Virus record (IMG/VR): IMGVR_UViG_3300038954_000199
Reading direction: 5' to 3' (one strand)
Length of the DNA: 56,393 bases
Origin: an uncultured virus (IMG/VR IMGVR_UViG_3300038954_000199)
Lineage: Duplodnaviria > Heunggongvirae > Uroviricota > Caudoviricetes
The position numbers were made by a program, and so were the translations under genes. Of the stretch, positions 18,217 through 53,476 are shown in pieces (within the stretch, counting starts at the first letter, position 1; each line of letters opens with the position of its first letter). The notes beneath the pieces were generated by a model, which had not been told where the DNA came from, made no database searches, and saw only the letters and a program-made list of their open reading frames with translations.

Positions 18217-20124
18217 GTGGCTACATATAGAGGATTTACAATAAATGAGCAGGGTGATCCGGCACCATGGGGAACTACTGAAAACTCACTGTTCAAATCT
18301 ATATTAGATTTTTTACCTCAGAGTTCCGATTCTTCAATTATAAATAATGAGGAGCATAAACATTATAAGCTATATGATACTGGTGGATCATTAGCAGTAT
18401 CGGTAAATGCTACGGGCAATGTAACTGTTAGCGGCATGACTGTTGCGGGGTTTGTTAAAAACGATGCTTCCGGGGTATTGAGCGGTGGAAACTCTATTGC
18501 TGTTGGTGATCTACCGGCACATGCGACTACACACGAAAGCGGTGGCGTTGATACTGTAGACCACGACAATCTTGTAAACTTCGTTGGAAACAAGCATATC
18601 GACCATACGTCTGTTTCGCTTACTGCGGGTGATGGGCTGACTGGTGGAGGTGATATATCCTCGAGCAGGTCTTTTGCCGTTGGTGCTGGTACGGGTATTA
18701 CTGTTAATGCCAATGATATTGCGATAAAAAACGCAGGATCTTTGACAGACGGTCGTATCACGTATTGGGACGATGAAAATGGTCAGCTTGCAGATACCGA
18801 GGCATATTGGGATTCTGTAAATAGTCGGTTTGGAATCGGCACAGACGCACCCAACTATTTCATTGACGCACAAACGTCCGGAGTTGCCCGTTTGCTGCAG
18901 CTTAAACGCACGGATGCCGGGTCGGTTTATCAATTATTTACGGATTCAAGTGGCGATTATTGGTTGATCGGACATGAGAGTGGAAACAATTTTATTTTAA
19001 ATTACAACGGTTCTGAAAAGGTTGTGTGGACTTCAGACGGCGATTTTGGACTTGGCGGCAATCCTAATCGGCGCGTTGAAATTACAGATTCGTCAACTGT
19101 CTATGTAAGATTGACAAATACTGATACAACCGTTGAAGCCGATCAAGTTATTTCCGCGATTGAATCGTATTCATCGGACGCCTCCACGAACTGCGCGGAC
19201 GTCTGGAATAAAATTGAATTTGCGGCTGCTGGCGACCATACCGCAAACGACCATAAAACAAAAACATCGTTTTATAACTCTGACGCTACGAATTTACGTG
19301 AGTCAATGCGTATTGACCAGGCTGATGAATCCCTATCCCTGTATTGCAGCAACACGGAGCAGATTGGCATCGAGTGGCGAAACATGAGCTATGATAAATT
19401 CTCCGCCGGAATCCGCCTTATTGACGGAGGAGGGACTTGGGCGAAATGGGGTCTTGGTTTTTATACCGGCGACGATGACGATAATTCGACAGACGCCAGT
19501 TTGCGTATGTCTATTATGCGTGATGGAAAGGTTATTATCGGTGATACCAGTTCGTCGTACAAATTCAAAGTCCAGGACTCCTCGGACTCTACGAACCTGC
19601 TTGCAAATTTCGAAAACCCAAATACAGGAACATCTGCCGCCGGTGAAATACGCGTGAACGCAGAAGGCAATCATGCGTTTATTCGTGCTTACGGTGATTC
19701 GCATTCGACCGATGCTTATAATGTTGATTTTGGTGCTGCGGACGTTGGACCATTCTCAGCTGTTAGCATTGTGTCCGGTGGGATCCGGAGAATAACGGCT
19801 TACCGCAGCGGCAATATTGTAATCAACGAAGATGGAGAAGATACAAATTTACGAATTGAGGGCAGCGGTAACGCCAACCTGTTATTTTGCGATGGCGGCA
19901 ACGATAGGGTAGGCATCAAGACAAACTCCCCGCTGGCCGAACTTGACGTTAACGGTTCGCGAGTGGTGCGGTATGGCGGTTATGACTATTTCTTAAAAAA
20001 CGGCGCAAGTGCTTTAGCAGAGAATGGGAACTGGCGGACTTATGTTGATGCGTCTGACGATCTTGTCACAGAGACACGTATTGGTGGCTCCTGGACGACA
20101 ATACAAACATTGAGTGCGAGCTGA
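18217..20124 (+). CDS. Tail fibre (receptor-binding) protein
   Basis: AGDGLTGGG, RFGIGTDAP, RMSIMRDGKVIIG and RVGIKTNSPLAELDVNG are fibre-shaft repeats. Confidence 0.8.
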   Translation: MATYRGFTINEQGDPAPWGTTENSLFKSILDFLPQSSDSSIINNEEHKHYKLYDTGGSLAVSVNATGNVTVSGMTVAGFVKNDASGVLSGGNSIAVGDLPAHATTHESGGVDTVDHDNLVNFVGNKHIDHTSVSLTAGDGLTGGGDISSSRSFAVGAGTGITVNANDIAIKNAGSLTDGRITYWDDENGQLADTEAYWDSVNSRFGIGTDAPNYFIDAQTSGVARLLQLKRTDAGSVYQLFTDSSGDYWLIGHESGNNFILNYNGSEKVVWTSDGDFGLGGNPNRRVEITDSSTVYVRLTNTDTTVEADQVISAIESYSSDASTNCADVWNKIEFAAAGDHTANDHKTKTSFYNSDATNLRESMRIDQADESLSLYCSNTEQIGIEWRNMSYDKFSAGIRLIDGGGTWAKWGLGFYTGDDDDNSTDASLRMSIMRDGKVIIGDTSSSYKFKVQDSSDSTNLLANFENPNTGTSAAGEIRVNAEGNHAFIRAYGDSHSTDAYNVDFGAADVGPFSAVSIVSGGIRRITAYRSGNIVINEDGEDTNLRIEGSGNANLLFCDGGNDRVGIKTNSPLAELDVNGSRVVRYGGYDYFLKNGASALAENGNWRTYVDASDDLVTETRIGGSWTTIQTLSAS

Positions 20125-20567
20125 TGGGACGAAAAACTTTATCAAGCGGAGATTCGTTTACGTGTACTGATCTGGAAGTTGGATCTGACACCGGGACGTT
20201 TGACGTTAAATTAAAAATTGCTGAACTCTACATGAATGCGACCATAGAGCTTGAAGAGTCAGATGAATTTGAATGGGACGGTAACGTTGCGGCGGGAGAC
20301 TGGAACAATCTATACACTCCAACCGTTGGCAGTAGCGAGACCGGGTACATAATGGTGATTGACGAAAAGGACGACGGCAGCTATGACATGGCTTACGTCA
20401 AATACACCGAGGCCGGAGGCGGTAGCGTGACGCTTGTCGTTGAAGAAGCAAGTACGCGCGTGCAGTTTCAGGACAATTCCGGAACCATACAGATTGCAAA
20501 CAATGTTAATCCGGGCGCGGGTCATTGGCTTAAGGCGTATACTCGAATAAGCGTGGGGACTGACTGA
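20124..20567 (+). CDS. Fibre-associated beta protein
   Basis: TGATG-coupled acidic beta-strand ORF within the GC-richer cassette. Confidence 0.5.
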   Translation: MGRKTLSSGDSFTCTDLEVGSDTGTFDVKLKIAELYMNATIELEESDEFEWDGNVAAGDWNNLYTPTVGSSETGYIMVIDEKDDGSYDMAYVKYTEAGGGSVTLVVEEASTRVQFQDNSGTIQIANNVNPGAGHWLKAYTRISVGTD

Positions 20568-21139
20568 TGCCTGTAAAAGTTCATGGCGGCGTAAAAGTAA
20601 CAAGCGATTTGGATCAAGGCGACCTTAGCGATTTCGCTTTTGCAGATCACACCGATTATAGTATGTCATATACTCCTGACGTCGGCGAGTGCGGCATAAT
20701 TAAAATTGATACGGCATATTACGGGGAGGCCGAGTTTCATTGTCTTGATTGTGGAGTTGTACTTGATACGTATTCCCATTCAGACACAGATTGGGCGTAT
20801 TATTTTTATCATAAAACAGACGCGACAACTGTGGCGTTTAAACGATTTCGATCAAAAAATAGTGCAGACCCTGTTATTGACTGTCTTGAAATAACGTATA
20901 GCAGCTACGGCGAGTTAGTAGGCTATACGGCCAGCATATCTTTGCAAAATGACAGCGGTGATATAAAAACTTTATCAAGCATGGGCGATCTGTCGGGTGA
21001 TTTGCCACATAGTGAAAGGACGGAATTATTTAAAATTAGCGATGGTGGCGCTCATGACAATCACAACGGAAGGGGGGATGGGGAAAATGGTGGAGAGTAT
21101 GGATTAATATTAATAAAGCGATTTAAAAAATCATCTTAA
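20567..21139 (+). CDS. Fibre-associated protein
   Basis: TGATG-coupled; loosely resembles the previous ORF (YTPTVG...GYIMV vs YTPDVG...GIIKI; FQDNSGTI vs LQNDSGDI). Confidence 0.5.
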   Translation: MPVKVHGGVKVTSDLDQGDLSDFAFADHTDYSMSYTPDVGECGIIKIDTAYYGEAEFHCLDCGVVLDTYSHSDTDWAYYFYHKTDATTVAFKRFRSKNSADPVIDCLEITYSSYGELVGYTASISLQNDSGDIKTLSSMGDLSGDLPHSERTELFKISDGGAHDNHNGRGDGENGGEYGLILIKRFKKSS

Positions 21140-21150
21140 AGGAGTCCAAA

Positions 21151-21597
21151 ATGTCGAAGGTTTACGAAATCAAATTGACGAAAAAAGAATCGGATGATGT
21201 GATTGAAAAACGCAGGCAGGAGCACCTAGATCATTATCTGTATGAATACAAAATGAATAAACGTCAAGACGATGCGGATGTCCCGCCGGAGCACGTGCAA
21301 GAAAAAATCAAAAATCAAATCGTGTCAGAACGGGAAAATGAAAAAACGATTCTCAAAGCGTTGTTTCAAGCGTTCGCGACCGACAAAGAAAACGAGAAAG
21401 ACCTGTCCGTTTTTAATGAGATGCTTGACAATATTCGGCAGGTTGACGATGCGGAAGATAGTGTACGGCTGACAAAACAGGACAGCGAGCGAATCCGTGA
21501 TACGTTTAAGAAAATGCCAGTGCAGTTCAAAACGCAGTGTTTTCGGTATCCGAACCTGATGAAACAGATTGAGAAACCTGAAGAGGTAGATGTTTAA
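21151..21597 (+). CDS. Putative tail fibre assembly chaperone
   Basis: AAGGAG SD; helical, charged protein closing the fibre cassette. Confidence 0.45.
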   Translation: MSKVYEIKLTKKESDDVIEKRRQEHLDHYLYEYKMNKRQDDADVPPEHVQEKIKNQIVSERENEKTILKALFQAFATDKENEKDLSVFNEMLDNIRQVDDAEDSVRLTKQDSERIRDTFKKMPVQFKTQCFRYPNLMKQIEKPEEVDV

Positions 21598-21644
21598 TAA
21601 CTTTTAAATCTGTAACGGGAATAACTTTATAGTGGTTGATTAAA

Positions 21645-24600
21645 ATGGGATATGGAACATATTCATATGGAACAAATGATTATGGAGAAGATTCATCAAG
21701 TTCAAGTAGTAGTAGTATGAGTTCCTCCTCGTCATCTTTTTCATCAAGTTCTTGTTCAAGTAGTTATTCTAGTAGTTCATGTTCTTCTTCATGCTCAAGT
21801 AGTTATTCTAGTAGTTCATGTTCTTCTTCATGCTCAAGTAGTTATTCTAGTAGTTCATGTTCTTCTTCATGTTCAAGTAGTTTTTCCAGTAGTTCATCCT
21901 CCTCTCCAAGTGACTCGGGAATACGATATTATGTTTCTGATGGTGCAACGGCAACGTGGGACGATCCTCTTAATTGGGCCTATATATCTGGGGGTTATGG
22001 TGGTGCTGGAGTTCCAGATGCAACCAATGATGTTGTTTTTGATGCAAATTCTCCTGATTGTGATATAAACATAACAGATGCAGCAGCCTTAACAGTAACA
22101 ACCGAAAGTGATTTTTCGAACACTATTAGTTTTACAGTAAGTAATGCTAAATTGACAATAGAAGGTGATGGAGATTTTAGTTATGGTACTCTTGCTTTTG
22201 GAACTAATAATGCAACTCTAATTTGTAATAATACGGATAGTGGAACACTTACATCGTTTTCTACAGTAACCGCAGGCGATGGAACAGTTTGTGTAAAAAG
22301 AACAAACGAACTCGCGGCAAACAGCGTAACTTTTTATAATTTAGAAATCGGAGACAATGGCTACACGACAGTATTTTTAAGTTCTTCACTAAATTTTACA
22401 AATAACTTTACATTAAAAGAAAATTCCACGTTTGATGGAAATGGAAATGTAATTAATTATACAGGAACACCAAGTAACAACGAAATAATTACTTTTGAAA
22501 GTGGCTGCTCGTGGACTGATTCCGGATCGCTTACGCGAATGTACCTGGATCCTGCTGGAAGTGGCACCGCTACTATAGGTGGTGCTGGTATGACAAGTAC
22601 AGCGGACGCAAAATGCAATTTATGGTTTCCTTATGATAATAGTAATACTATGACACTTCGTCAAAGTGCTGATAAAGCTTGGGATTATATTTATTTTGAA
22701 GGACCATCTTTTACGTATGAGACTGATGGGTATGACTTAGAATTAGATGGAGGCGGGATTGGTAGTTATGTAGATGATGGAGAATTGGACCTATCTGGAG
22801 GTACTGGCGGAACGTCTACAGTGACAGTAGGACCAACTGATGGGCTTGATATTAGTGGTACCCTAACTCAGGGTGATGCAATATTAAACGTTACTAATAC
22901 AGACTCAGACAGTTTAACTTGTTCCGGTACATTTAACGGGGGAACAGGTAATATAACTGTTTATGGCAGTCTTGGTGTACATTTTGGTAGTTTTGTACAA
23001 GGAGCACAGACTATTATTGTTTACAAAGATCTGGTTGTGAACGGCGATTATTTTACAAAAAACGCATCTGGATTAATTAAAATGGAACCTTCTGGTGCTG
23101 TGCAGAAGTTAGATATAGCGGATACTGTCGATCTTGGTAACATTGAAATAGACGCCGGATATAATGAAGTGCAGACGACTGACTCGACAACTAATATTAA
23201 CGTATCCGACTTTACGCTAACCTCTGGTACGTTTACACACGATAGCGGTAATTGGTTTAATATTGGCGGATCATTTACGTTAACAGATGGAACAATGTCG
23301 GTCAGTGATAATATGGAGATAGATGGATCTATCTCCATGAGTGGTGGTACGTTAAACATAAGTAGTTCCCCTAACATAATATTTAATAACTCTTTATCCT
23401 TATCAGGAACATCTATATCAGATAGTACTGGTAATTGGTTTTATGATCCCTCTGGAGGTGGGGGAGATAATATTGATTTTAATGGAGAAACAGTACATAA
23501 TCTGAATCTTGGTAGCGATAATGATCCAAATTCCAATATAACTGGAAATGTTGTCGTTGATGGAACACTTAGTATAACAGACAATGTAACTGTGACGGTT
23601 ACTTCGGGTGTAACTGTTGAAGCCGATGCTATTTCTTGGAATGGAACATCAGGTAATTTAATAACACTACGAGCATCTGGAGCAACTCATTGGTATTTAA
23701 TTTGTAATGGTAATTACGGGAGCAACTCTGTATCATATGTAGATGTACAGTTATGTGATGCTTATGGATCCCCGTCAGATCCTACAGGACAAACAATTGA
23801 TGCTACTGATGGAACAAATACGGACTCGGGTGATAACTTAAACTGGGACTTTGGATCTGGGGCGTCATCCTCATCCTCTTTTTCATCAAGTTCCAGTTCA
23901 TGTTCGAGTAGTTTTTCTAGTAGTTCCTGCTCCAGTAGTTTTTCTAGTAGTTCCTGCTCCAGTAGTTTTTCTAGTAGTTCCTGCTCCAGTAGTTTTTCTA
24001 GTAGTTCCTGCTCCAGTAGTTTTTCTAGTAGTTCCTGCTCCAGTAGTTTTTCCAGTAGTTCATCCTCCTCTCCAAGTGACTCGGGAATACGATATTATGT
24101 TTCTGATGGTGCAACGGCAACGTGGGACGATCCTCTTAATTGGGCCTATATATCTGGGGGTTATGGTGGTGCTGGAGTTCCAGATGCAACCAATGATGTT
24201 GTTTTTGATGCAAACTCATCCAGGTCCTGCCCGTTAAACTCTAATGCAAATTGTAAATCTGTTACATTTTCAAGTTATTCCCATACTCTAACTACCAATA
24301 GTAGAACGTTAGAGATAGAAGAGGCTTCTAGTATTGTTGGAGGAACAGTTGATATATCAAGTGGAACAATTATACTAAAAGAAAGTTCTACGATAAGACC
24401 TTCAAGTGTTACTACAGGAGGCACATGGTCCTTTGAAGCTTCATCCACATTAACTATAAAAGTTGATCGAAATACAAATCTAGGTAATGTATCGGTATCA
24501 GGTGCAGGTACTTTGGTAGTAGATCAAGATGCAACCAATGGTGGGTTATTATGCGATTCTTTAATTTCTACTACTGACATTGAATCTACATCTTCTGCCT

Positions 24601-25607
24601 ATATTGATGCAGAAGAATGGATATTAACCAGTTGTTCTTTAACTGCTGGATCTAATGTATATTTTAGAGGTAGTGCTACGTTTGATACGGTAACCGTAGG
24701 TTCCACAGGAACATTTATTATAGCTGCTGATGGAGTATATGATTTTGATGGTGCTACATTTCCAAATATGTCCACCGCTTCCGGTGGAAAAACAGTATCA
24801 TTCCAATCAAACTTTTCTACCTTTGGTACAATGACCCTAAATGATAATGATGATATTTCATTTTCTACATCAGGAACATTTAATTTTAATACTATAGACT
24901 GGACAGGATCTTCCGGAAATCTAATTACGATATCCTCATCGGGTATTGGTACATGGGCTTTAGATGTGGATATAGCTAGCCCTACAGTATCATATATAGA
25001 TGTTACAAACAGTAATGCCTCATTTGGAAATTCAATTGATGCTACCGACGGGACAAGTATCGACAATGGTGGAAATACTAACTGGCTGTTTCCTTCTTCA
25101 TCAAGCAGTTCATCAAGTTGCAGTTCAAGTCTTAGTTCATCATCAAGTTGTTCGTGTTCTTTATCTTGTTCATCAAGCTCGTCCTTTAGCTCTTGTTCTT
25201 CAAGTTCTTCTTATAGTTGTTCATCGAGTTCTTCCTATTCTTCATGCTCATCATCAGTATCGTCGTGTTCAAGTTCCTCCTCGTTTTCATCAAGCAGTTT
25301 CTCATCGTGCTCATCAAGTTTTTCATCTTGTTCTAGCTCGTCTGTTTCCGGTTCCAGTTTTACAGCACGTTTTCATGAGAGAACGACAATTGAAGAAGAA
25401 GAAGGGATCGTTTATTATTCAAACGCCAACATAGAAGATTTTCTATATGCACCATTTAAAGGTGTTCCAAGATATATATTTAATAGAGGATATCCAATAG
25501 ATGAAAATGCTGGCGATAGATATGAAGAACTAACCAGAAATGCTATTGGTAATCATTTTTTAACTATGATTAAATATCCTGGAATAGTTGATAGAAGGAA
25601 TGTCTAA
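21645..25607 (+). CDS. Giant adhesin-like virion protein: two beta-helix modules joined by Ser/Cys tracts
   Basis: ATG at 21645 lies in the listed 21636 frame. Three poly-Ser/Cys tracts; two modules starting RYYV...W...NW...P...VVFDANS and ending IDATDGT..D.G.N.NW.F; Gly/Thr/Asn-rich passenger-like repeats. Confidence 0.7.
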   Translation: MGYGTYSYGTNDYGEDSSSSSSSSMSSSSSSFSSSSCSSSYSSSSCSSSCSSSYSSSSCSSSCSSSYSSSSCSSSCSSSFSSSSSSSPSDSGIRYYVSDGATATWDDPLNWAYISGGYGGAGVPDATNDVVFDANSPDCDINITDAAALTVTTESDFSNTISFTVSNAKLTIEGDGDFSYGTLAFGTNNATLICNNTDSGTLTSFSTVTAGDGTVCVKRTNELAANSVTFYNLEIGDNGYTTVFLSSSLNFTNNFTLKENSTFDGNGNVINYTGTPSNNEIITFESGCSWTDSGSLTRMYLDPAGSGTATIGGAGMTSTADAKCNLWFPYDNSNTMTLRQSADKAWDYIYFEGPSFTYETDGYDLELDGGGIGSYVDDGELDLSGGTGGTSTVTVGPTDGLDISGTLTQGDAILNVTNTDSDSLTCSGTFNGGTGNITVYGSLGVHFGSFVQGAQTIIVYKDLVVNGDYFTKNASGLIKMEPSGAVQKLDIADTVDLGNIEIDAGYNEVQTTDSTTNINVSDFTLTSGTFTHDSGNWFNIGGSFTLTDGTMSVSDNMEIDGSISMSGGTLNISSSPNIIFNNSLSLSGTSISDSTGNWFYDPSGGGGDNIDFNGETVHNLNLGSDNDPNSNITGNVVVDGTLSITDNVTVTVTSGVTVEADAISWNGTSGNLITLRASGATHWYLICNGNYGSNSVSYVDVQLCDAYGSPSDPTGQTIDATDGTNTDSGDNLNWDFGSGASSSSSFSSSSSSCSSSFSSSSCSSSFSSSSCSSSFSSSSCSSSFSSSSCSSSFSSSSCSSSFSSSSSSSPSDSGIRYYVSDGATATWDDPLNWAYISGGYGGAGVPDATNDVVFDANSSRSCPLNSNANCKSVTFSSYSHTLTTNSRTLEIEEASSIVGGTVDISSGTIILKESSTIRPSSVTTGGTWSFEASSTLTIKVDRNTNLGNVSVSGAGTLVVDQDATNGGLLCDSLISTTDIESTSSAYIDAEEWILTSCSLTAGSNVYFRGSATFDTVTVGSTGTFIIAADGVYDFDGATFPNMSTASGGKTVSFQSNFSTFGTMTLNDNDDISFSTSGTFNFNTIDWTGSSGNLITISSSGIGTWALDVDIASPTVSYIDVTNSNASFGNSIDATDGTSIDNGGNTNWLFPSSSSSSSSCSSSLSSSSSCSCSLSCSSSSSFSSCSSSSSYSCSSSSSYSSCSSSVSSCSSSSSFSSSSFSSCSSSFSSCSSSSVSGSSFTARFHERTTIEEEEGIVYYSNANIEDFLYAPFKGVPRYIFNRGYPIDENAGDRYEELTRNAIGNHFLTMIKYPGIVDRRNV
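21756..21872 (+). repeat. 39-bp tandem repeat x3 encoding Ser/Cys/Tyr linker
   Basis: Unit tcaagtagttattctagtagttcatgttcttcttcatg(c/t) starts at 21756, 21795 and 21834. Confidence 0.9.
21876..22048 (+). repeat. 173-bp exact direct repeat, copy 1
   Basis: Identical to 24042..24214 by direct comparison. Confidence 0.92.
23907..24041 (+). repeat. 27-bp perfect tandem repeat x5 encoding SSFSSSSCS
   Basis: Unit agtagtttttctagtagttcctgctcc at 23907, 23934, 23961, 23988 and 24015. Confidence 0.95.
24042..24214 (+). repeat. 173-bp exact direct repeat, copy 2
   Basis: Identical to 21876..22048. Confidence 0.92.
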
Positions 25608-26173
25608 TGTCGAGTTCATCCAGTTGTTCATCATCCAGTTTTTCGAGTTTCTCCAGTTGTTCATCATCAAGTTCGTATACGGGCTTCTCGGCTCCGTCCC
25701 TGTCCGTCACAGACGGAAATTTTGAAGTATTGGCCCATGATACATCTAATAACGTTATCGTTAATTCTGGGGTCGGATACGACGGTTATGGAAACAGATT
25801 GTCTTTAGATGTTCGTAGAAAAATACAATTAGACTTTTCAGATATTTTGGGATCTTTTGCATACCTATGTATTAGACGACGTACTGCACCAATCTTAATA
25901 GATTATCAAGATCACCCATATTATTGCCTTCCAAAAGCAACCAAACGAGCGGTAGATGTTGAATTTTACTTAACAGAAGATATTGTCGGTATTAGTATTG
26001 ATAACGGATATGGATATTATCCGGCACTAGACGACAATAATATTATTAATGGATTAGTTCTTGCAAAAGTATATAAAAACGCATCGGATAAGCCGGATAT
26101 TACTTGGAGATCTCCAATGTTAGCTGTAAAAGACGGTACTTTTTTTAACTTAGATGGATTTAATGTGGGGTAA
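25607..26173 (+). CDS. Poly-Ser/Cys-led paralogue of the C-terminal two-thirds of 17654..18208
   Basis: Shared motifs: G.G(F/Y)D..G.RL, YLC, DY..HPY, (L/V)EF(F/Y), YP...DNN...GLVLAK, RSP. Confidence 0.7.
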   Translation: MSSSSSCSSSSFSSFSSCSSSSSYTGFSAPSLSVTDGNFEVLAHDTSNNVIVNSGVGYDGYGNRLSLDVRRKIQLDFSDILGSFAYLCIRRRTAPILIDYQDHPYYCLPKATKRAVDVEFYLTEDIVGISIDNGYGYYPALDDNNIINGLVLAKVYKNASDKPDITWRSPMLAVKDGTFFNLDGFNVG

Positions 26174-26175
26174 TT

Positions 26176-26445
26176 ATGATAATTCTTAAAATGCCTGATG
26201 GAGAAGAAAAAAAAATTAATTTACCGACTACAGAAAAAGAACAAAAATTATATGATTTGTGGAAAACGTCAAAAAATAAAAAAATAACTTTGGTGGTAGA
26301 TGGTAGTTCGGTAGAGATAAAACTTTGTGATATATTAAATTGTCATATTGTAAAAAATAATGAGGATAATATAAATAGGTCAAGATCATATGTAGGCTCT
26401 GATAATGATGTGCTTGATTTTTTAAAAGATATGTTTGGAATGTAA
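26176..26445 (+). CDS. Hypothetical protein
   Basis: 89 aa ORF ending the + strand operon, just before a terminator hairpin. Confidence 0.6.
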   Translation: MIILKMPDGEEKKINLPTTEKEQKLYDLWKTSKNKKITLVVDGSSVEIKLCDILNCHIVKNNEDNINRSRSYVGSDNDVLDFLKDMFGM

Positions 26446-26475
26446 AAAAAAAGAGGCAACAAAAGTTGCCTCTTT
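26444..26475 (-). terminator. Intrinsic terminator at the convergent strand switch (possibly bidirectional)
   Basis: Perfect stem aaagaggcaac/gttgcctcttt with a 4-nt loop; the A-run at 26444-26452 gives a U-tract on the - strand. Confidence 0.8.
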
Positions 26476-26510
26476 AAGAGAAGTGTCCAAAGACCAACTT
26501 TTACTAATTT

Positions 26511-27470
26511 CTAGTTCCCAATTAACACGTCGCAATCCAGATCAAATTCTCCTACTTTTTTGCTTAGTCTTATATAGACTCGTTTCTCATCGTATTCCGA
26601 ATCATCGTAATATTGTACAAAATATTCGTACTCCCAACTTGGCATCAATCCTCGTACTTTTTTTGCTTCTCTGAATTGCGAATCATTAAGTGTGCGTTTT
26701 TCTGATTCTTTGCAAACTACATCATCTATTTCAGGTAGATGATACTTAGATGTATCAAGATAGACTACTAAGGGAGTTTTTAATAAAGATTCACATTCCG
26801 CCGTCTTCAAAATGTAAATCGCTTCAGCCATTGGCATCACATCTTCAGACCAGCGCTGTTTTTGTGTTTCTGTTCCGACTTTGTTAATTGCTTCTGTCAA
26901 TTGTTTGTGTTTTCTCTCTTCTCGTTCCTCACGTTTTTTTATTGATGCATCAAGACGATTTCGTTCATCTCGTTCGAGTTGTTCGTGTATATGTTTGTAA
27001 TTGTTTTTAAGTTTTTGAAATCGTTCTTTATGATCACCTGTCAAAAGAGACACCGGTAAATTCTCAGACTCATTGACAAAATACCGGATTTCCCTGATGG
27101 TCAAAGAAATTACTTTTGTTGGGTCTGTCTTTGTAAATCTTTTTTCGAAAAAAGATAACAGTTTTTCGGCTTCATCTATTTTTTCTTCTCTCTCTCTTTT
27201 ACGATCAGCTTGATAGAAAGCGTAAAAATCTTCTTCATCAATCAAAGAGGCAACCGGATATATAAGCTCATCCGTTCCCTTTGTGTAGTGACCGTGTTCT
27301 GTACGGAGATGCAGTGACCCGTTATGATACACATGTACCTCGTTAGGGGTTTCTTTTAGAAGGGGAGTAAGATCTACCGAGATGTTTCGAGTCTTGTGAG
27401 CAGGTTGTCCGTCTTTTGCGAGTTCTCGTTGCAGTTCATTTGTGATGCGGTACGTGATTTCCGTTTTCAT
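26511..27470 (-). CDS. Hypothetical protein (coiled-coil, probably early)
   Basis: 319 aa ORF with GAAAGGA SD, preceded by a structured leader. Confidence 0.75.
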   Translation of the reverse strand: MKTEITYRITNELQRELAKDGQPAHKTRNISVDLTPLLKETPNEVHVYHNGSLHLRTEHGHYTKGTDELIYPVASLIDEEDFYAFYQADRKREREEKIDEAEKLLSFFEKRFTKTDPTKVISLTIREIRYFVNESENLPVSLLTGDHKERFQKLKNNYKHIHEQLERDERNRLDASIKKREEREERKHKQLTEAINKVGTETQKQRWSEDVMPMAEAIYILKTAECESLLKTPLVVYLDTSKYHLPEIDDVVCKESEKRTLNDSQFREAKKVRGLMPSWEYEYFVQYYDDSEYDEKRVYIRLSKKVGEFDLDCDVLIGN

Positions 27471-27483
27471 GATAAGTCCTTTC

Positions 27484-27577
27484 TGCCGAGGTTTCCGGCA
27501 ATGGTTGTGCTGGTTTTTCCAGCTTGTTGTCCCGGAGTTCCGGGGTTAGTTACATAGTTACATAGTTACAAAGTTAC
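27484..27577 (-). promoter_or_regulatory. Structured leader: 8-bp tandem repeats followed by three GC hairpins
   Basis: On the - strand: about four (T)GTAACT(A/T) units, then CCCGG-aact-CCGGG, GCTGG-aaaaa-CCAGC and TGCCG-gaaacct-CGGCA, separated by ACAAC-containing linkers. Confidence 0.6.
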
Positions 27578-27630
27578 TACTTTATTGTTTTCGTCAGACG
27601 TGAAATCGAATAGATTTTTTATTGGGGTTG

Positions 27631-27816
27631 TTAACACAATGTTAGCAACCCACCCTTTTCCAAAAAACCCTCTTTTTTGGCGCGATATAGTATAGCATCT
27701 ATTGCGGTGTTCATACGATCACTTGTCACCCGGAATCCGTACTTACCAGTCCCAAATGATGAGGGGCCTGCATCTTGTATGTCTTCTGGATTTGTCAGAT
27801 TTACAAAGTATACCAT
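27631..27816 (-). CDS. Hypothetical protein
   Basis: 61 aa ORF with a GGAG SD. Confidence 0.5.
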   Translation of the reverse strand: MVYFVNLTNPEDIQDAGPSSFGTGKYGFRVTSDRMNTAIDAILYRAKKEGFLEKGGLLTLC

Positions 27817-27840
27817 GGTTTCTCCGTTGTCACTCAGTTG

Positions 27841-28944
27841 TTATTGAACAATAATCTTGATCTTTTTGGATACCAAGTTGTTTTGTAACACACCAAAGTA
27901 GATGCCGGGTACTGAGTGATTCCAATTGAATCTACCACCCACAGTTTTTGATATAATTTGTCTACCTCTTATATCATATACGGTAAAGTTTGCTTTATTG
28001 TGATGGGTTTTGAATGTAAAGGAGCGTCCGGGATTAGGATACACTGACAGTGTATTTGATAGTGTATTTGTGTTTTGTGTAACAACTTGGATTTTGGTAG
28101 GATTTTCTGGTTTTATTGAATCTTTGTAAGTATTCCAGTGGTCGATTACTCCTTGTACAATGGAGTCGGTTTCTGTAAGATAATCAAGAGTAATTAATCT
28201 TTCTGCACACATTTTTCCAGGAAAAAGTACTTCCTCTCTATTTTTATCCCAGGGCCAAGAGTAATGTGAAAACGGTGTATAACCACCTAACACCAAAGAA
28301 TCGGGATCATCTTGAGAAACAGAATTTAGTTTAAGTGTATCGGTAATAATGTCCCCAATGTGCGATCCATCTACATATATATAATTTTTATAAATAACGT
28401 AGTAATCCCAATCACCTATTCTGTACCAATCATAGTATTTTATAAGTAATGAGATATAATGCCAATTATTATTATGTATACTTGATTCCAATGAATTTAT
28501 ATAATAGGTATTTACAAATTGCCCGTCGGATCCACCATGTTTTACTTTGAAGGATTTTCCTGTAGACGATACTGATAATTGAACATAGTTTTTATAGTGA
28601 ATGATTGGGTAAAATGATTCTCCCAAAGTATCTGCTGATTCTTGATAAGTTTTGATCCAGCCATCAAATAATACAGATCCAAAACGTCCAGAGTTATATC
28701 CTAATGGATATTTAACTTTGCAACTAATACTACCACCATGACCAATGGTATCGTCGAGTGTTGCGAGGTCAAATGATGATCCTGTTGGACTTGTGGAGTC
28801 AATATATTCACTTCCCGGATAGGGACGTGTATAGTATGATCCAACAATTTCCATATGTTCATACTCTGAAAAATGCACTGCTGATACAGACACTACAAGT
28901 ACCGTAATTAACGTAATTAACGTAATTAACGTAATTAATCTCAT
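27841..28944 (-). CDS. Secreted LamG/ConA-like protein with T9SS type A-like C-terminal sorting domain
   Basis: GGAGG SD; signal peptide ending VSVSA; central NNWHYISL...IYVDG...LVLGG; C-terminus SVYPNP...VYDIRGRQI...PGIYF...KKIKIIVQ. Confidence 0.75.
   Translation of the reverse strand: MRLITLITLITLITVLVVSVSAVHFSEYEHMEIVGSYYTRPYPGSEYIDSTSPTGSSFDLATLDDTIGHGGSISCKVKYPLGYNSGRFGSVLFDGWIKTYQESADTLGESFYPIIHYKNYVQLSVSSTGKSFKVKHGGSDGQFVNTYYINSLESSIHNNNWHYISLLIKYYDWYRIGDWDYYVIYKNYIYVDGSHIGDIITDTLKLNSVSQDDPDSLVLGGYTPFSHYSWPWDKNREEVLFPGKMCAERLITLDYLTETDSIVQGVIDHWNTYKDSIKPENPTKIQVVTQNTNTLSNTLSVYPNPGRSFTFKTHHNKANFTVYDIRGRQIISKTVGGRFNWNHSVPGIYFGVLQNNLVSKKIKIIVQ
28903..28938 (-). repeat. 9-bp tandem repeat x4 (LIT) inside the signal peptide
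   Basis: cgtaattaa x4 on the + strand. Confidence 0.95.
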
Positions 28945-28992
28945 ATTTCCTCCGGGTAAAATTACCTTTAACTTTCCTTTTCATCTACCAAT

Positions 28993-29022
28993 AATATACA
29001 TTAATACACTTGTTAAGTGCAA
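28993..29022 (-). promoter_or_regulatory. Putative sigma70-type promoter for the T9SS-cargo gene
   Basis: TTGCAC-18 nt-TATATT. Confidence 0.5.
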
Positions 29023-29041
29023 GCGTTTTTATAATTATTTT

Positions 29042-29911
29042 TTATTCGGAGTTTTTTGATATCTCTTTTATTATTGAATAGCATTCCAGTTCTTCTAATA
29101 ATTCAAAGAGATCGGTGCTATGCACAGGAGGTTTTTTAAGCTGGTCTATGTCAACATTGATATTACAATTTGTAGCAAGAGTTATAAGTGTTCTATCTCT
29201 TTCAATATGTTTTTGTGCATCCTCAAATTTTTTACGTTTTGTTTTTGTTAGCTTAATTAAGTTATTATAAATATTATCTAACGATCCGTATTCAGATAAA
29301 AGGTTTATTGCCCCTTTCTTTCCTACCCCTGTTATTCCGGGGACGTTGTCCGACGTATCTCCTAGAATTGTTAGATAGTCTACTATTTGTTCTGGGTAGA
29401 CTCCAAATTTATTATATATCCCTTGTCGATCTAGGATGGTAGCTTCATCATTTCCTACGGACTTACCAAGGTCTAACATCGTGGTAGATTCATTAACTAA
29501 TTGTGCAAGGTCTTTATCTTTAGATACAATTGTTACTTTCCCTTTTGTTTCGGATTTCTTTGCCAGTATTCCAATTACATCGTCTGCTTCCAGGGGTCTA
29601 AATGCCGCAGTATATATACCCCAAGTTTTTAATAGGTGATAAGACATTTCTAATTGTGGTGTAATATCATCAGCATGTTTTCTATTTGCTTTATATTCGG
29701 GATAAAAATCTTTTCTCCATGTTCGATAAGGTGGATCAAATATAACACCTATATGCGTAACTGGATAATGTAATAATAATGTTGTTACTATCTTTGCCAT
29801 TCCCCAAGTAGCACTTGTATTTACACCTTTACTGGTAATTAATGGATTCTTTGCAAATGCGTGGTGATATCTATAAACAATTGAATGTCCGTCAAGTAGA
29901 TAAAGATGCAT
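29042..29911 (-). CDS. 5'-3' exonuclease / flap endonuclease (stand-alone PolI N-terminal domain)
   Basis: LLDGHSIVYR, YKANR, EADDVIG, SKDKDLAQL and the H3TH motif GDTSDNVPGITGVGKK. Confidence 0.95.
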   Translation of the reverse strand: MHLYLLDGHSIVYRYHHAFAKNPLITSKGVNTSATWGMAKIVTTLLLHYPVTHIGVIFDPPYRTWRKDFYPEYKANRKHADDITPQLEMSYHLLKTWGIYTAAFRPLEADDVIGILAKKSETKGKVTIVSKDKDLAQLVNESTTMLDLGKSVGNDEATILDRQGIYNKFGVYPEQIVDYLTILGDTSDNVPGITGVGKKGAINLLSEYGSLDNIYNNLIKLTKTKRKKFEDAQKHIERDRTLITLATNCNINVDIDQLKKPPVHSTDLFELLEELECYSIIKEISKNSE

Positions 29912-29913
29912 TG

Positions 29914-30549
29914 TTATCCTTCTGTAAGAAATCTTCTTTTATGTTTTGGAAACTTTCTTGAAAATTTTAGTACTTTACTAAGATACATAAGGTACTGAGT
30001 TAATTCCAGATCATTTGCTTTTTTAAGTCTTTCGACGGCATTATAAAATCTAAAGCTAAGCGGCCTTGTATTAGGTGCTCCGTCTCTCCAGTTTGCTAAA
30101 CATGATATTCTTTCACAAATTTCTTTTCCGGGTACTCGTCTTTCATATAACATTAATATTTCATATTGTTTTTTTGTAAGAGTTTTTTTTAGTTTTATAT
30201 CTATACTTGTTCGCTGTTTAAAATCTAGTAAAGCCAATATAGCAATAAAAACATATTTAAGGCGCTTTTTTCTTTGAGTCATTGCTGAAGAAGATAATTT
30301 TTTACCAAATGTGTTTTCGTGCATTTTTGCTTTAATAATATTATTTTTACAAGTATCTTCTGGATTTTTATATAACGAAAATAAAAGACATTCTTCTTTT
30401 GTTAAATGATTTTCGATTTTGTTATATATTCTAGTCATGTCATCAATAGACATTTCATAACTAGATTCATCCGAAAATAAGGATAAATCCTCTTCTGGAT
30501 CTTTATCTATGTATTGTATTAAATCTGAGTATCGTTCGATTCTTGGCAT
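29914..30549 (-). CDS. Putative DNA-binding protein with sigma region-4-like HTH(s)
   Basis: LTKEECLLF...SSSAMTQRKKRLK and LTKKQYEILMLY...KEICERI resemble sigma4/LuxR helices. Confidence 0.4.
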   Translation of the reverse strand: MPRIERYSDLIQYIDKDPEEDLSLFSDESSYEMSIDDMTRIYNKIENHLTKEECLLFSLYKNPEDTCKNNIIKAKMHENTFGKKLSSSAMTQRKKRLKYVFIAILALLDFKQRTSIDIKLKKTLTKKQYEILMLYERRVPGKEICERISCLANWRDGAPNTRPLSFRFYNAVERLKKANDLELTQYLMYLSKVLKFSRKFPKHKRRFLTEG

Positions 30550-31079
30550 AATAATAAGGGCATTTGAGTTATATAACTATATTGGTCACAAGTAAAGCGT
30601 ATAGTTGCAAATTCTTTATCAACCTTTTCAACGTACCCCCTCCATTTTTTAAATGTACCGTGAGTAATTTTAACAGTCATTCCTTCATGTAATACAGGTC
30701 TTTTATTTGATGATTCACAAACTTTTTTTATGGCTTTTACATCAGTTTCTTTAAGCTTTGTAGATTCGTCCATCATCATAAAAGTAACTGTTGTAAGGGA
30801 TGCAAATCCGTCATTTAAACACAAGGGATGTTTAGATCCTATAAAAAAATATCTATCTGTTAAATGAATAACAATATCTCTACCCGTTACAGGATCTTTT
30901 ACAGTTGTTGATGGTATAAGAACAGCATCTATTTTAGTTTTTGGAACAATTGTGTTTTTTATATATTTTACAAAAAGTTTATAATGTCCTAAATAAATAC
31001 CTGTATACCAGTATAACAAATCATACCCTGTAAAATTAAGGTCAGTATGAAATTTTTCTTGTTTTTTTATTTTTGACAT
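30519..31079 (-). CDS. NusG-family transcription elongation/antitermination factor (NGN-like + KOW)
   Basis: N-terminal WY...VLIPS...LTDRYFFI...LKETDVKAI; C-terminal KOW LHEGMTVKITHGTFKKWRGYVEKVD. Confidence 0.75.
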   Translation of the reverse strand: MSKIKKQEKFHTDLNFTGYDLLYWYTGIYLGHYKLFVKYIKNTIVPKTKIDAVLIPSTTVKDPVTGRDIVIHLTDRYFFIGSKHPLCLNDGFASLTTVTFMMMDESTKLKETDVKAIKKVCESSNKRPVLHEGMTVKITHGTFKKWRGYVEKVDKEFATIRFTCDQYSYITQMPLLLCQESNDTQI

Positions 31080-31086
31080 TACTAGT

Positions 31087-31115
31087 AAAATAATATAAAT
31101 TTACTAAAGTATCAA
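31087..31115 (-). promoter_or_regulatory. Putative sigma70-type promoter giving a leaderless NusG-like mRNA
   Basis: TTGATA-17 nt-TATTTT with 7 nt to the ATG at 31079; no SD. Confidence 0.45.
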
Positions 31116-31119
31116 ATTT

Positions 31120-31743
31120 TTATACAATCTCGACACTATAGTGTTTTTCTTTTTTTGTTAAGTCTTCAATATCTACTTTTAGCGTTTCTTTTTGTTCTTC
31201 TAGTATTCCTAAATCTTTTGCAAGGAGATCTTTTTTAGCTTTTACTCGTTCTTCTATTTCTTTTTTACTCATCTGTTCTGGGTTTATTAATGCGGCGTAC
31301 TGTTTTTTGTATGCCTTCAAAGAAGTATTTACATTCGATATTATATTTGGCAAAATGTCAGAAAACAAATTTCCCAGTTCGGTGCGGGACTGTTTTGCAT
31401 CTTCCAATACTTTTGTTATATAATTAAGATATTGTGAATGTTCTTTAACTAAATTCTTTAAAATATCTTTATTACATATAACATCTATCTTTAATAGTTC
31501 AATAAGATCCTCTGTTTTTTGTATGTTAGATATTTTGTTTTTGTATCCTTTTATTTTTTCTGTTATAAGTTTTAAATCTTCCTGTTTTGATTCTTTCACT
31601 TCTTTTATGTATGTTATATAGTTCCGTATAAAGTATCCGGACAATTCCTTAAAGGCCTTCTCTCCAGGACACGTTAACCAAAGAGGAAGTTTTTCTTTAA
31701 AATGGTTATCTTCTTCTAAAAACGTCTTTAGTGTTTTCATCAT
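31120..31743 (-). CDS. Hypothetical coiled-coil protein
   Basis: 207 aa; AGGAG SD; Lys/Glu heptads. Confidence 0.65.
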   Translation of the reverse strand: MMKTLKTFLEEDNHFKEKLPLWLTCPGEKAFKELSGYFIRNYITYIKEVKESKQEDLKLITEKIKGYKNKISNIQKTEDLIELLKIDVICNKDILKNLVKEHSQYLNYITKVLEDAKQSRTELGNLFSDILPNIISNVNTSLKAYKKQYAALINPEQMSKKEIEERVKAKKDLLAKDLGILEEQKETLKVDIEDLTKKEKHYSVEIV

Positions 31744-32050
31744 TCTCTCCTAAAAATTTGTCTACTTCTTCAATTAACTTTGCTATATATGTGATTGTTT
31801 TATCCACTGTTTTTTCAGGTTCCCTGCCATGTATATTTTTAATGTACTCTGTAACCTTTTCTAAATATCCTTTTGCAAAACATTCGTATTTATAGTATTT
31901 ATTTCTTAAAGCAAACGGTCTGGCACATCTATCTAATGTCTGTTCTTTCTTTTTTAATACTCTATTTATGTAAACTACTAGTCCTGCTAAATCCTGAGAC
32001 GCTAAAAATGTCCCAATAATATGAATCTCTTCATCCGACAGTTTACTCAT
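31706..32050 (-). CDS. Hypothetical protein
   Basis: 114 aa ORF overlapping both neighbours in the operon. Confidence 0.6.
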   Translation of the reverse strand: MSKLSDEEIHIIGTFLASQDLAGLVVYINRVLKKKEQTLDRCARPFALRNKYYKYECFAKGYLEKVTEYIKNIHGREPEKTVDKTITYIAKLIEEVDKFLGENDENTKDVFRRR

Positions 32051-35258: not shown

Positions 35259-35471
35259 TTAACCTCTAAAAGTTATTCTACCACGGGAAAGATCATAAGG
35301 AGAAACTTCTACGGTAACGTTATCTCCTGGAACAATTTTTATAAAATTCATTCGTATTTTTCCAGATAAGGTTGCTAAAACCTTATGCCCGTTGTTTACT
35401 TCAACAATAAAAGCATTGGGTTTAGTATCAACTACGGTTCCTTTTAATTCAATAGGTTTTTCTTTTGCCAC
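35259..35471 (-). CDS. infA: Translation initiation factor IF-1
   Basis: [13 protein letters not shown]...[35 protein letters not shown]; the likely start is GTG at 35471, overlapping the polymerase TAG (TAGTG). Confidence 0.97.
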
Positions 35472-37990
35472 TATTTGATCCCCCATTCTTTATAAATGTC
35501 AATATCGGCTTTCATTTTAACACTAAAATCTTTGTGTGGGCTACATTCCATAGTATCTACCATTAAGTTTGATACATAATCTACATAGTCATTTCTTGTT
35601 TCTGTTATAATACTATCATAAACAGTAAGGACTATTTTTCCTGGAATATTGTTTTCTTTAAGGTGTTTATGAATACGTATTAATGCTAATATTGTTATAT
35701 CCGATGCGGTAGATTGAATAATAGAATTTACGGATTGTCGTTCGGATTTAGCTTTTATGTCCGAATCAAAAGAAAATATTCCTGGTAGATATCTAGTTCT
35801 TCCGAAAATATTTTTTACGTACCCTTGTTTTTTAACATATTCATGAGTATCCAATATCCATTTTTTACAGTTTGGAAATCTACCAAAAAAGGCATTCATA
35901 AAATCTTCTGCTTCTTTAATTGGTATGTTATATTCCATAGCAATAGATTTTGCACCTCTACCGTATAGTAGTCCAAATACGGTTCCCTTTGCTGCCTGTC
36001 GCATTCCTTTAACAATAGGGTCCTCTAATATATTAAGTTTATGTATAAATGTATCATATGGTATATTGTTAACTTCAGAAGCAACTAAGCTATGGACATC
36101 AATTTCGTCGGAGTCAAACGCACTTTTTAATGTTTTGTCATTTGCATAATGAGCAAAACATCTGACTTCAGCTTGAGACAAGTCACTTTGGATTAGATAG
36201 TTTCCTTCTTCTGCAATGTACATTTTTTTAATATCGGACTCTCTAGGGATATTCATTAGGCCCTTACTTGATGGTCTACCTGTTTTAGTTCCTACAGGAC
36301 GTATAGACATATGTACACGGTCATTCTTATCTATGTTACGCAAAGGGTTTTCCAAATAGGTAGATGACATTTTTTTAAGATGCCTGTGGTCTAAAATAAG
36401 TTTTGGTACTATATGTTTATTTCCCAGTTCACCTAGAACTTCGTTATCTGTACTAACTTTTCCGGTGTCCGTATTTTTGTTTGATGTAAGACCCAAATGT
36501 TTAAATAATACCTTAGCTACTTCTGGAGCGGAAGCAACATTGAATTTTATATTAGCGTGTTGATAAATATCCTTTTCTATTTTCTTTGACCGTTCTGTAT
36601 ATTCTGTAATCATTTTTTCTGCTAATAGTCTATTGTACTTTACACCATAATATTCAAAATCTTCACAAAATTCCATAAGTGGTACATAAAAGTTAGTCAT
36701 AAACTTCATACGTTCCGGATCACTTAAAAATTTATTATAATGGTCTTTTGTTAATCTATAAGTGGCGTCACAGTCACCACAACAATAATCGGAAATTGTT
36801 TGTAGTGATGCGTTGGTAGAGTTAGAACCACTGTTTGTTTCTTTTTTCCATCTTTCTGAATATCCTAAAAGGTCAATATAATTATTTTTAAGAACGTCTA
36901 ATGCATTAGATGTGTTTTCATTTATTAAATATGCACTACACATAGAATCCCAGGACAAACCATTAACTTTTATTTTAAGATCTTTGCGTATCATAACGGT
37001 ATCAAAATGAGAATTGTGCGCACTTTTTTTTATATGTTTGTCTTCTAAAATTGGTCGGATTAAATCTATTACCGTTTCTCTTGATATATCTTTATCATCC
37101 CAAAAAGGAACCAGATTAGTACTCATAAGAGGCTTCACAAAGAATGGGATATAACACGATACGCCTTCATCAAGACCGATTCCAAGTCCCAATACATAAT
37201 CTTTCCAGTTAACCCCCGATGTTTCAACATCAAAAGTCATTACCTTACGTTCTTTAATTAAGCTCAAAACCTTCTCTAACTTTTCCCTATTATCTACCAC
37301 CCGATACTGATGTTCAATGAACAAAATGTTGTCATTACTTAAATCAACGGCCTTTTTAATATGAGATACCACTTCCTTTGCAATTACAGATAAACCAAAT
37401 TTTGTATTAACGCCCCCATTTCTTAAAACATAAGAAGGATGATACGTTGGGATCATATATATCCTATTTGTATGAAAATTACTGTGGGGATATAAAGATG
37501 GTAGTCCTACTCTATCTGTTATTTTTTGTTTTTTTACTTCTAAAGCATTTAGGGCCGTAGATCCCAAAGGTATAATTACTTTAGGTTTTACTAAGTCAAT
37601 CTCTTCGGATAAGTATTTAAAACATGCTTTCATCTCTTTGGGAGTAGGCTTACGATTTGTATACCCAGATTGTTTAGGTGAACTATTAGTTTCCTCTCCC
37701 CATAGTAATGTAGGGGTATCATCTTTTTTTACTTCACCTTCGCAGGGCCAGCACTTACACACATTTGTTATATATATGTCCGATCTTTTTAAACCTGCAA
37801 GTTCCAATATATTATCAAGGCATTTACCAGAGTTACCAACAAATGGTTGTCCGGTATATGCCTCGGTCATTCCAGGAGCTTCCCCTACCAACATAATATC
37901 TGCTTTTGGGTTACCCTTACCTAACACCACTTTAGTGTTGGGTGGCCGGTTACCTAATGGGCAGATCTTACAGTTTTTAGGATCTACCAA
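35471..37990 (-). CDS. polA: Family A DNA polymerase with N-terminal family-4 uracil-DNA glycosylase and 3'-5' exonuclease
   Basis: UDG: CKIC, GEAPG, KCWP, KAC, HPS. Exonuclease: FDVETSG, HNSHFD, YCCGD. Polymerase: [26 protein letters not shown]. Confidence 0.95.
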
Positions 37991-43092: not shown

Positions 43093-43821
43093 TTAAACTG
43101 CATCACTTTTTGGAGAAATGTTATCTGTTACTCTACGAAGAAGTGTTTGTAGATGCATTCCGCGATCTTTTAATGTGTCTCTCAATTCTAAAAAGACTTT
43201 TTCATTTTCTTCCCAATCTGAAATAAGTTCTAAGTTACTTTTGTATTCTGCTTGATAATTAGTTATAATGTGATCTTCAATTTCTTGTAATGTTATTTGT
43301 CCTAAATCTTTTCTTAACCTTGCATTTTTATCTGCTATTCTTTCTGCACGCAATGAATCCCGAGCTTCTTTCCGTTTTTCTGATAACCATAATTCATGAT
43401 ATGCTTTCCACTTTCTGTATTCTCTGTGTGCGGCAATATAAGCACAAAAACAGGTCATCCTATATGCCGCACACATTTCTAAAGCTCGTTTTAATTGTGT
43501 TTCTGAAAAGTCAGCTAAATCTTCTTCTTTGTTAATTCTTATTAATGTGTCACATAATACTTGAAATCTTCTACCATTCAAAATTAAATCAAAGTTAAAT
43601 AATTCTTTAGGAGGTTTAGGATCTGGATTATGATCATTATTACACATTGCATTACCGTATTTAGATGCTATTTTAGGAAAAGTTATGCCTTGATTAGTAA
43701 ATTGTTGATTCATCCAATGTTCTTGAAATTTGTTATCAAAGTCATTTAAAGCTTCTCGACGTTCTTTTGGAGTCAGGTCATTTAAATTTTTAGTGCTACT
43801 GGTATTTTGTTTTATTTTCAT
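43093..43821 (-). CDS. UvsY-like recombination mediator (putative)
   Basis: C-terminal long helices (ITLQEIEDHI...LKDRGMHLQTL) and position next to SSB-like and recA genes. Confidence 0.45.
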   Translation of the reverse strand: MKIKQNTSSTKNLNDLTPKERREALNDFDNKFQEHWMNQQFTNQGITFPKIASKYGNAMCNNDHNPDPKPPKELFNFDLILNGRRFQVLCDTLIRINKEEDLADFSETQLKRALEMCAAYRMTCFCAYIAAHREYRKWKAYHELWLSEKRKEARDSLRAERIADKNARLRKDLGQITLQEIEDHIITNYQAEYKSNLELISDWEENEKVFLELRDTLKDRGMHLQTLLRRVTDNISPKSDAV

Positions 43822-53167: not shown

Positions 53168-53476
53168 TTAGTTTTGTCTGTATTTGGAACCATCTGAATT
53201 ACCGGTAAATTCTGATGCTTTATTGATAGCGGGTTTTATTTTAAGTACACGTCCGCCATACTCTATAGCTTCTCCGTCTATGAACTTTGTTACTTCTTTT
53301 TCGGGTACTACTATAAATGCAAATCCACGAGACTTTCCGGTTTCTCGGTCGATAACAATGTTAGCCCGGAGTACTTTACCCACGTCCCGAGTGAGATCTT
53401 CTTTTAATTCTTCCCATTTTGTGCTGTACGGTAAATTACCTACGTATAATTTTCGTACTGGTGAGGTAGTAATCAT
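53168..53476 (-). CDS. Single-RRM RNA-binding protein (bacterial Rbp type)
   Basis: RNP-2 KLYVGNLPYS; RNP-1 DRETGKSRGFAFI; GRVLKIKPA; AGGAG SD. Confidence 0.93.
   Translation of the reverse strand: MITTSPVRKLYVGNLPYSTKWEELKEDLTRDVGKVLRANIVIDRETGKSRGFAFIVVPEKEVTKFIDGEAIEYGGRVLKIKPAINKASEFTGNSDGSKYRQN

Follow-up and report, generated by a model that had tools for sequence, protein, structure and literature searches.

The question raised by this locus is whether a tailed phage encodes a protein that is carried to the outside of its host by the host's own type IX secretion system (T9SS), and what such a protein would do there. The DNA analyzed (56,393 nucleotides from an uncultured virus of the Caudoviricetes, here called the window) contained an intact ORF of 367 amino acids on the minus strand (positions 27841 to 28944), the product of which, P0001, comprises a probable signal peptide, a putative LamG-like core, a linker, and a T9SS type A C-terminal sorting domain (CTD). 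In a second assembly, made from a tidal-flat metagenome (run X1), positions 25000 to 32000 were recovered in one contig with 0 differences from the window; run X1 is possibly the source sample, and its assembly is thus not independent of the window. Residues 1 to 22 (28879 to 28944, minus strand) were predicted to form a probable Sec signal peptide, with cleavage after V-S-A as judged by eye. Hydropathy peaked at 2.84 within the first 30 residues, no 19-residue stretch after residue 30 exceeded 0.86, and the signal region was free of Cys. By hydropathy, this pattern fits an N-terminal signal peptide both in P0001 and in the ortholog described below and supports the Sec signal peptide that had been claimed in an earlier, sequence-only reading of the locus. 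The h-region, with its Leu-Ile-Thr repeats, was encoded by a perfect tandem repeat of 9 bp in four copies (28903 to 28938, minus strand), which was identical in the X1 contig and absent from the ortholog. A Thr/Asn/Ser-rich linker (approximately residues 277 to 300; 28045 to 28116, minus strand) preceded the CTD, and the ortholog also contained a Thr/Ser-rich stretch. Single-protein homolog searches with P0001, including searches of viral contigs, produced no match; a search of INPHARED with the P0001 CTD returned four records, which is at chance level, and in a search of public runs the tidal-flat metagenome was the one run that contained this DNA, with no RNA data sets listed as carrying it.

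The CTD (27844 to 28044, minus strand) matched TIGR04183 over residues 301 to 367 at 33.3 bits (cut-off, 23) and matched PF18962 at 24.5 bits (E = 3.4e-5), which is under the cut-off of 27. In an Atlas structure search, its predicted model had TM scores of 0.75 to 0.83 to PF18962-rich clusters (10 of 10 among the matches listed), and the Ig-like beta-sandwich fold of CTDs was thus found in predicted models. When a profile was built from P0001 and its ortholog, the first PDB match was 8glj_D, a true T9SS CTD chain (E = 2.5e-6). The glycine of the beta3-beta4 loop (G327) was invariant, and the CTD closed at the last residues of both proteins; this loop glycine is needed for the secretion of RgpB (PMC11285876). 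P0001 carries a type A T9SS sorting domain, as the sequence-only reading had claimed, with TIGR04183 above its cut-off and an Atlas fold match: of the two HMM searches which that reading had proposed, the one with TIGR04183 was positive but the one with PF18962 fell short, and HMM and structural matches, the lack of which it had named as grounds against itself, were both found.

The core (residues 23 to 276; 28117 to 28878, minus strand) is probably a LamG/concanavalin A-like beta-sandwich, as suggested by Atlas features and models. Aromatic residues (W, Y, F, and H) made up 20% of it, its features scored 0.96 to Laminin_G_3 clusters in the ESM Atlas, and its Atlas model (pLDDT, 0.60) had TM scores of 0.57 to 0.67 to LamG/pentraxin models. 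These results make the LamG core of the sequence-only reading plausible, but tests at the sequence level gave weak matches or none. An hhalign comparison of profiles, made against 17 LamG domains from bacteria, was weak (probability, 30%; E = 5e-4). A custom LamG HMM scored 1.3 bits on the P0001 core, inside the shuffle range (maximum, 8.8), and 9.0 bits on the core of the ortholog, just above the shuffle maximum of 5.4. The P0001 core had no Pfam, PHROG, or PDB sequence match, the PF13385 profile matched neither core, and the Laminin_G_3 HMM search that had been put forward as a check gave no match. AlphaFold2 models from one- and two-sequence input had pLDDT values of 32 and 33, too poor to use. 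Lectin activity of the core is what we infer from this putative fold.

An ortholog was reached through a neighboring phage-specific gene, which led to three metagenome contigs and from there to G174, a linear IMG/VR record of 90 kb (49% complete according to CheckV). Because the ortholog was reached via a neighboring clade marker, the blank single-protein searches did not mean that P0001 was a singleton. A protein of 242 amino acids encoded at 43093 to 43821 is such a marker. Replication gene order was the same in two of the three contigs; L244 and L245 were clade members ending before the cargo slot, and L005 was rejected as a clade member, being an unrelated phage. The gene orders of G174 and the window were colinear (of the 53 window ORFs, 41 had a match, with a median identity of 51%), and directly after its exonuclease gene, as in the window, G174 encoded a protein of 369 amino acids with a hydrophobic N terminus and a CTD that was over the cut-offs of both TIGR04183 (40.7 bits) and PF18962 (37.5 bits). 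Residues 82 to 367 of P0001 aligned to this protein with 28% identity (pairwise E = 2e-14), and the core-core alignment score of 97, compared to a mean of 16.6 and a maximum of 38 in 200 shuffles, indicates that the two cores are homologous.

Identity between the two proteins was 37% in the CTD and 27% in the core, and the cargo pair was the second least identical among the 41 window-G174 ortholog pairs. When viral contigs were scanned with the alignment of the two proteins, G174 was the only match. In 409 genomes, drawn from three samples at the phylum level (of 167, 121, and 121 genomes; one unpublished genome, G165, is counted among them but supports no other result here), matches were confined to the CTD region and no cellular ortholog of the core was found. 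Taken together, the two sequences indicate a conserved, fast-changing gene of a single phage clade, of which P0001 is a long-standing accessory gene. Retention of the layout while the sequence drifts is what a binding protein engaged in a conflict would be expected to show; the low identity of the cargo pair fits relaxed selection too, and two sequences cannot separate these readings.

The P0001 gene shared the strand of the replication genes, at a distance of 1.4 kb from the convergence with the tail operon, and was thus opposite to the virion genes, which confirms the earlier statement that it sits outside the virion operon. Its upstream neighbor, annotated as a 5'-3' exonuclease (29042 to 29911, minus strand), was 63% identical in G174 and served as the synteny anchor. 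A Shine-Dalgarno (SD) site, GGAGG (28949 to 28953, minus strand; duplex energy, -9.5 kcal/mol), preceded the gene, and AGGAGG preceded the ortholog. A candidate sigma70-type promoter, TTGCAC-18-TATATT (28993 to 29022, minus strand), agreed with the consensus at 8 of 12 positions; it was not among the sites returned by a consensus scan, which totaled 15 compared to 15.5 expected in the window, and scores of at least 8 were reached by 114 of 224 candidate window sites. The gene's own sigma70-like promoter, as described in the sequence-only reading, was therefore not above chance in the window alone, but a better site, TTGACA-17-TATCTT (10 of 12 by manual count), was present at the matching position in G174, which restores the claim in part. 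No Bacteroidetes-type promoter (TTG..TAnnTTTG) was found upstream of the P0001 gene, and five such sites were found elsewhere in the window.

The genes downstream of the cargo gene differed between the window and G174. In the window, an ORF of 61 amino acids with its own SD site and no family match (27631 to 27816, minus strand) was located 24 bp past the cargo gene and is possibly cotranscribed with it. A different gene took its place in G174, directly after the cargo gene (L346:1768-2262, plus strand), encoding 164 amino acids with a signal-peptide-like start and no notable family match. The intergenic region at 27471 to 27700, before an orphan gene of 319 amino acids, contained several hairpins and a direct repeat of 8 bp in four copies (27547 to 27577); Rfam families and tRNAs were absent from the window, this region included.

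The window as a whole comprised a long minus-strand replication block, with ORFs annotated as Pol A, DnaB, primase, RecA, clamp loader, and SbcCD-like proteins, facing a plus-strand tail block; the P0001 gene was at the end of the replication block, after the exonuclease gene, facing the end of the tail block. Baseplate_J was over its cut-off in the window tail block, a sheath domain and an amidase were found in G174, and the clade is accordingly annotated as one of large contractile-tailed phages. Window neighbor proteins mapped to a larger contig of 118,393 bases. Other ORFs of the replication strand included a phage IF-1 right after the DNA polymerase (35259 to 35471; TIGR00008, 98.7 bits compared to a cut-off of 61.15; 72% identity in G174), a NusG/UpxY-like antiterminator kept in G174 at 37% identity (30519 to 31079), and a single-domain RRM RNA-binding protein with no match in the G174 record (53168 to 53476). 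A family A DNA polymerase with an N-terminal uracil-DNA glycosylase domain was encoded at 35471 to 37990; the polymerase ORF of L245 had 1,322 amino acids, compared to 839 in the window, perhaps through an insertion. A patatin-like phospholipase with a lipoprotein-like N terminus and a short tandem repeat (53872 to 55227, minus strand; approximately 59% identity in G174) is predicted to be another protein that the clade directs to the envelope. On the plus strand, the tail-end proteins encoded at 21636 to 26173 contained long repeat tracts rich in Ser and Cys as well as an internal duplication (the G174 counterpart had 2,554 amino acids, compared to 1,323), and four tail-block genes at 18217 to 21597 had higher GC contents (0.41 to 0.48), atypical codon use, and no match in G174, which points to a recent insertion. 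The end of the window (56060 to 56393) held a 170-bp tandem duplication, 99% identical, that may be an assembly artifact. In G174, ORFs annotated as an Acb1-like 2H phosphoesterase with a fused ART-PolyVal domain (L352:2012-4528, minus strand) and as an Apyc1-like protein below its cut-off (L348:10211-10831, plus strand) are candidate antidefense genes.

SD cores preceded 18 of 41 window ORFs (P = 2e-10; 25 of 48 with hand-picked starts) and 34 of 63 G174 ORFs (P = 4e-21), compared to a background of 7 to 8%. Bacteroidetes are without SD sequences, and the ribosomes of Bacteroidia do not read them (PMC7797042 and PMC9976891), and SD use in both phages therefore suggests that the host is probably not a member of the Bacteroidia. 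The host is probably an SD-using lineage of FCB type outside that class, as judged from translation signals; Chlorobi, Ignavibacteria, Rhodothermia, and Fibrobacter are not mentioned in PMC7797042. Across the pooled CTD-bearing viral loci listed, SD cores were as frequent as the background (64 of 798 ORFs, compared to 7.2%). They reached at least 40% at 14 of the 131 listed loci with five or more ORFs, including L119 and L170, two false matches without a CTD, and L142, beside a terminase match, was another SD-using CTD locus. SD use thus appears to be a minority pattern among CTD-bearing viral loci and not unique to the window and G174.

Genomes of KSB1, Zixiibacteriota, Gemmatimonadetes, Eisenbacteria, and "Cytophagia" each contained 35 to 150 TIGR04183 matches (five of five genomes). 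SprA, PorV, and PorU were over their cut-offs in all five candidate-lineage genomes (three of the TIGR04183-rich set and two others), and GldM was matched in none of the five in a search that was run without a positive control. Genomes G001, G002, G003, G053, and G066, which contained SprA, PorU, and 11 to 35 PorV-family matches and, by the same uncontrolled search, no GldM match, possibly have a T9SS with another motor or none. The five genomes with SprA, PorV, and PorU are candidate lineages, not the host, from a sampling that leaves out Fibrobacterota, Cloacimonadota, Calditrichota, and Ignavibacteria. The 167 genomes searched from the phylum to which G001 belongs contained no prophage relative, and G174 tRNAs matched the five candidate genomes weakly. 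IF-1 matches (best, 66 to 77% identity) were spread over many phyla, and the nearest CTD style (best, 38 to 41 bits in all three genome groups) pointed to no host. Three partial matches of 34 to 39 bp in run X1 were rejected as CRISPR spacers since their flanks were unlike.

Searches of IMG/VR with two strict degenerate CTD patterns (at least 120 stretches and 99 stretches) yielded at least 221 ORFs in at least 68 clusters at 60% identity. The motif was 61 to 80 residues from the C terminus in 39 of 41 cluster representatives of the first set (among the matches listed) and 55 to 92 residues from it in 98 of 101 ORFs of the second. PF18962 was matched by 25 of 27 scanned representatives, with 24 over the cut-off. 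Among 53 neighboring proteins at 14 CTD loci, a PHROG match was found at 11 loci and a lysis, head, or packaging gene at 5; other surveyed CTD loci may be host DNA. These counts suggest that viral contigs commonly carry CTD-tagged genes. The LamG profile and the core of the phage pair matched none of the 221 surveyed ORFs, many of which were truncated, and the LamG profile misses P0001 too. Viral CTD proteins with cohesin (two clusters) or dockerin domains were also seen (L154:2324-4240, L138:3944-5860, and L194:3956-4576).

Phage genes of this kind have been described before. Bellas (2020) reported three T9SS cargo genes in Cryophage and proposed hijacking of the host T9SS and superinfection exclusion (PMC7468147), so that the novelty implied in the sequence-only reading was too high. 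Like P0001, the Cryophage cargo has a type A sorting domain at the gene end and varies between relatives; its cores are annotated as endoglucanase, GH39, and PA14, whereas that of P0001 is probably LamG-like, its host is inferred as Bacteroidetes, whereas that of the P0001 phage is probably outside Bacteroidia, and its variants come from phages whose cores are 99% identical, whereas the P0001 gene was kept at approximately 51% protein identity (PMC7468147). De Jonge (2019) reported T9SS sorting-domain ORFs near crAss-BACON genes in gut phage contigs (PMC6949934). These are likewise phage CTD proteins, one of them joined to a BACON repeat, a putative carbohydrate binder, but they are from gut phages and lie beside the head module, and the passages that describe them propose no mechanism (PMC6949934). 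RgpB, HBP35, and mirolase share with P0001 an Ig-like CTD of approximately 70 residues and the beta3-beta4 glycine, and they have a signal peptide, as P0001 probably does, but they are host proteins whose export has been shown, whereas P0001 is phage encoded and its export is predicted (PMC11285876). T9SS CTDs can be incompatible between species, so heterologous tests may fail (PMC11285876). The earlier statement that no characterized example is known held, in that no experimental study of phage-encoded T9SS cargo was found in the openly accessible literature, supplements aside.

T9SS-type export is the best reading of P0001, given the HMM and fold matches of the CTD and the retention of both the probable signal peptide and the CTD in the ortholog, and to this extent the interpretation offered in the sequence-only reading stands; its lectin and its superinfection exclusion are further, conditional steps. 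How the domains of P0001 are laid out, the family and fold of its CTD, the conservation of its position, and its fast divergence are shown here; the following course is drawn from what is known of the T9SS. Host RNA polymerase would transcribe the gene early, from its own sigma70-type promoter, and the signal peptide would take P0001 via Sec into the periplasm. Host SprA-PorV-PorU would then read the CTD and cut it off, leaving the LamG-like core at the surface or in the medium. There, the core would find its ligand among the glycans or proteins of the host surface, with the receptor used by this phage or by its competitors as the likeliest candidate, and receptor binding would block superinfection or the readsorption of progeny. 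In flavobacteria, resistance to double-stranded DNA phages typically goes back to mutations in the T9SS (PMC12781566), and T9SS-dependent surfaces therefore matter for adsorption, which favors this course. The Sec and T9SS steps are likely; once export is granted, blocking of a surface receptor by the core has about an even chance. For the reading as a whole, in which a LamG-like core exported by the T9SS blocks the phage receptor, we would put the probability at roughly 0.4. The Llp protein of phage T5 is a small lipoprotein that binds FhuA. By analogy, Llp and P0001 may both be early, envelope-targeted proteins with a proposed receptor block, and they have no common sequence or route.

Exported P0001 could instead serve the infected cell or the niche of the phage through adhesion to sediment particles, aggregation, or glycan capture. 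A bacterial protein of the same layout does exist, a LamG-plus-CTD protein of 378 amino acids in G001 (L371:1192-2328) that resembles P0001 in size, domain order, and N-terminal leader, and the annotated endoglucanase, GH39, and PA14 domains of Cryophage cargo (PMC7468147) also favor such a use. However, the G001 protein has a clear PF13385 match, where P0001 has none, and in an hhalign comparison its core could not be matched to that of the phage pair (probability, 1%, from the CTD only), and the P0001 core was without a cellular ortholog in the 409 genomes. The large replication module and the lack of a detected integrase among the window ORFs scanned, in records that are partial, suggest a mainly lytic phage, which would have little time for functions that benefit the host, and this use is unlikely. 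It is improbable, too, that P0001 works by occupying PorV or SprA as a decoy, so that less host cargo is displayed and receptors are lost indirectly, with the core as bulk only. The flavobacterial T9SS mutations that give phage resistance (PMC12781566) would suit this reading as well, but a decoy would not need the 250-residue core with shared motifs that was kept in both phages.

Export itself would fail if the host had no working T9SS or if P0001 were periplasmic and its CTD were simply an Ig-like domain, in which case the core would act on the envelope or block DNA entry. Many phyla outside the FCB group would be compatible with the SD and sigma70-type signals, many of the top IF-1 matches were from Bacillota or Desulfobacterales, the P0001 CTD is under the PF18962 cut-off, and a profile drawn mostly from non-Bacteroidia CTDs had FlgD as its best PDB match, so the fold family has other uses. 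Against this, in both phages the CTD occupies the extreme C terminus and has its loop glycine, its sequence is closer between the two than that of the core, and the two-protein profile matched a true T9SS CTD chain before any other; a CTD that does not serve outer membrane export is rather unlikely. Least probable is that the gene is a neutral passenger from the host or encodes a virion decoration protein. Its place at the junction of converging operons, where neighbors differ between the two phages, and the presence of LamG domains in viral protein clusters (Atlas) would suit such an origin, but the gene is intact and syntenic across a median protein identity of 51%, its codon use and GC content are typical of the phage (index, 0.70, in the midrange of 48 genes), it is on the strand opposite to the virion genes, and its product has a probable signal peptide.

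Metagenome studies have suggested since 2019 to 2020 that phages use a host protein secretion system to remodel the exterior of the cell that they infect, and T9SS cargo as a kind of phage protein had been reported before; new here are the evolutionary support from G174, in which layout, position, and promoter were kept while the sequence drifted, and the extension of such cargo to a probable host outside Bacteroidia. The P0001 phage is a poor test system, with no cultured host and two sequences, one sample. The abundance of the class in viral contigs lowers the surprise of P0001 and makes the class worth testing. It is quite unlikely that every part of a more specific reading holds, namely, that the clade infects an uncultured SD-using phylum of FCB type with SprA, PorV, and PorU and no recognizable GldM and exports through that system a long-retained, fast-evolving protein of lectin fold that masks the phage's own receptor. 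If true, it would be genetic evidence that a reduced T9SS exports cargo and would reveal a route of superinfection exclusion that has been proposed before and never shown.
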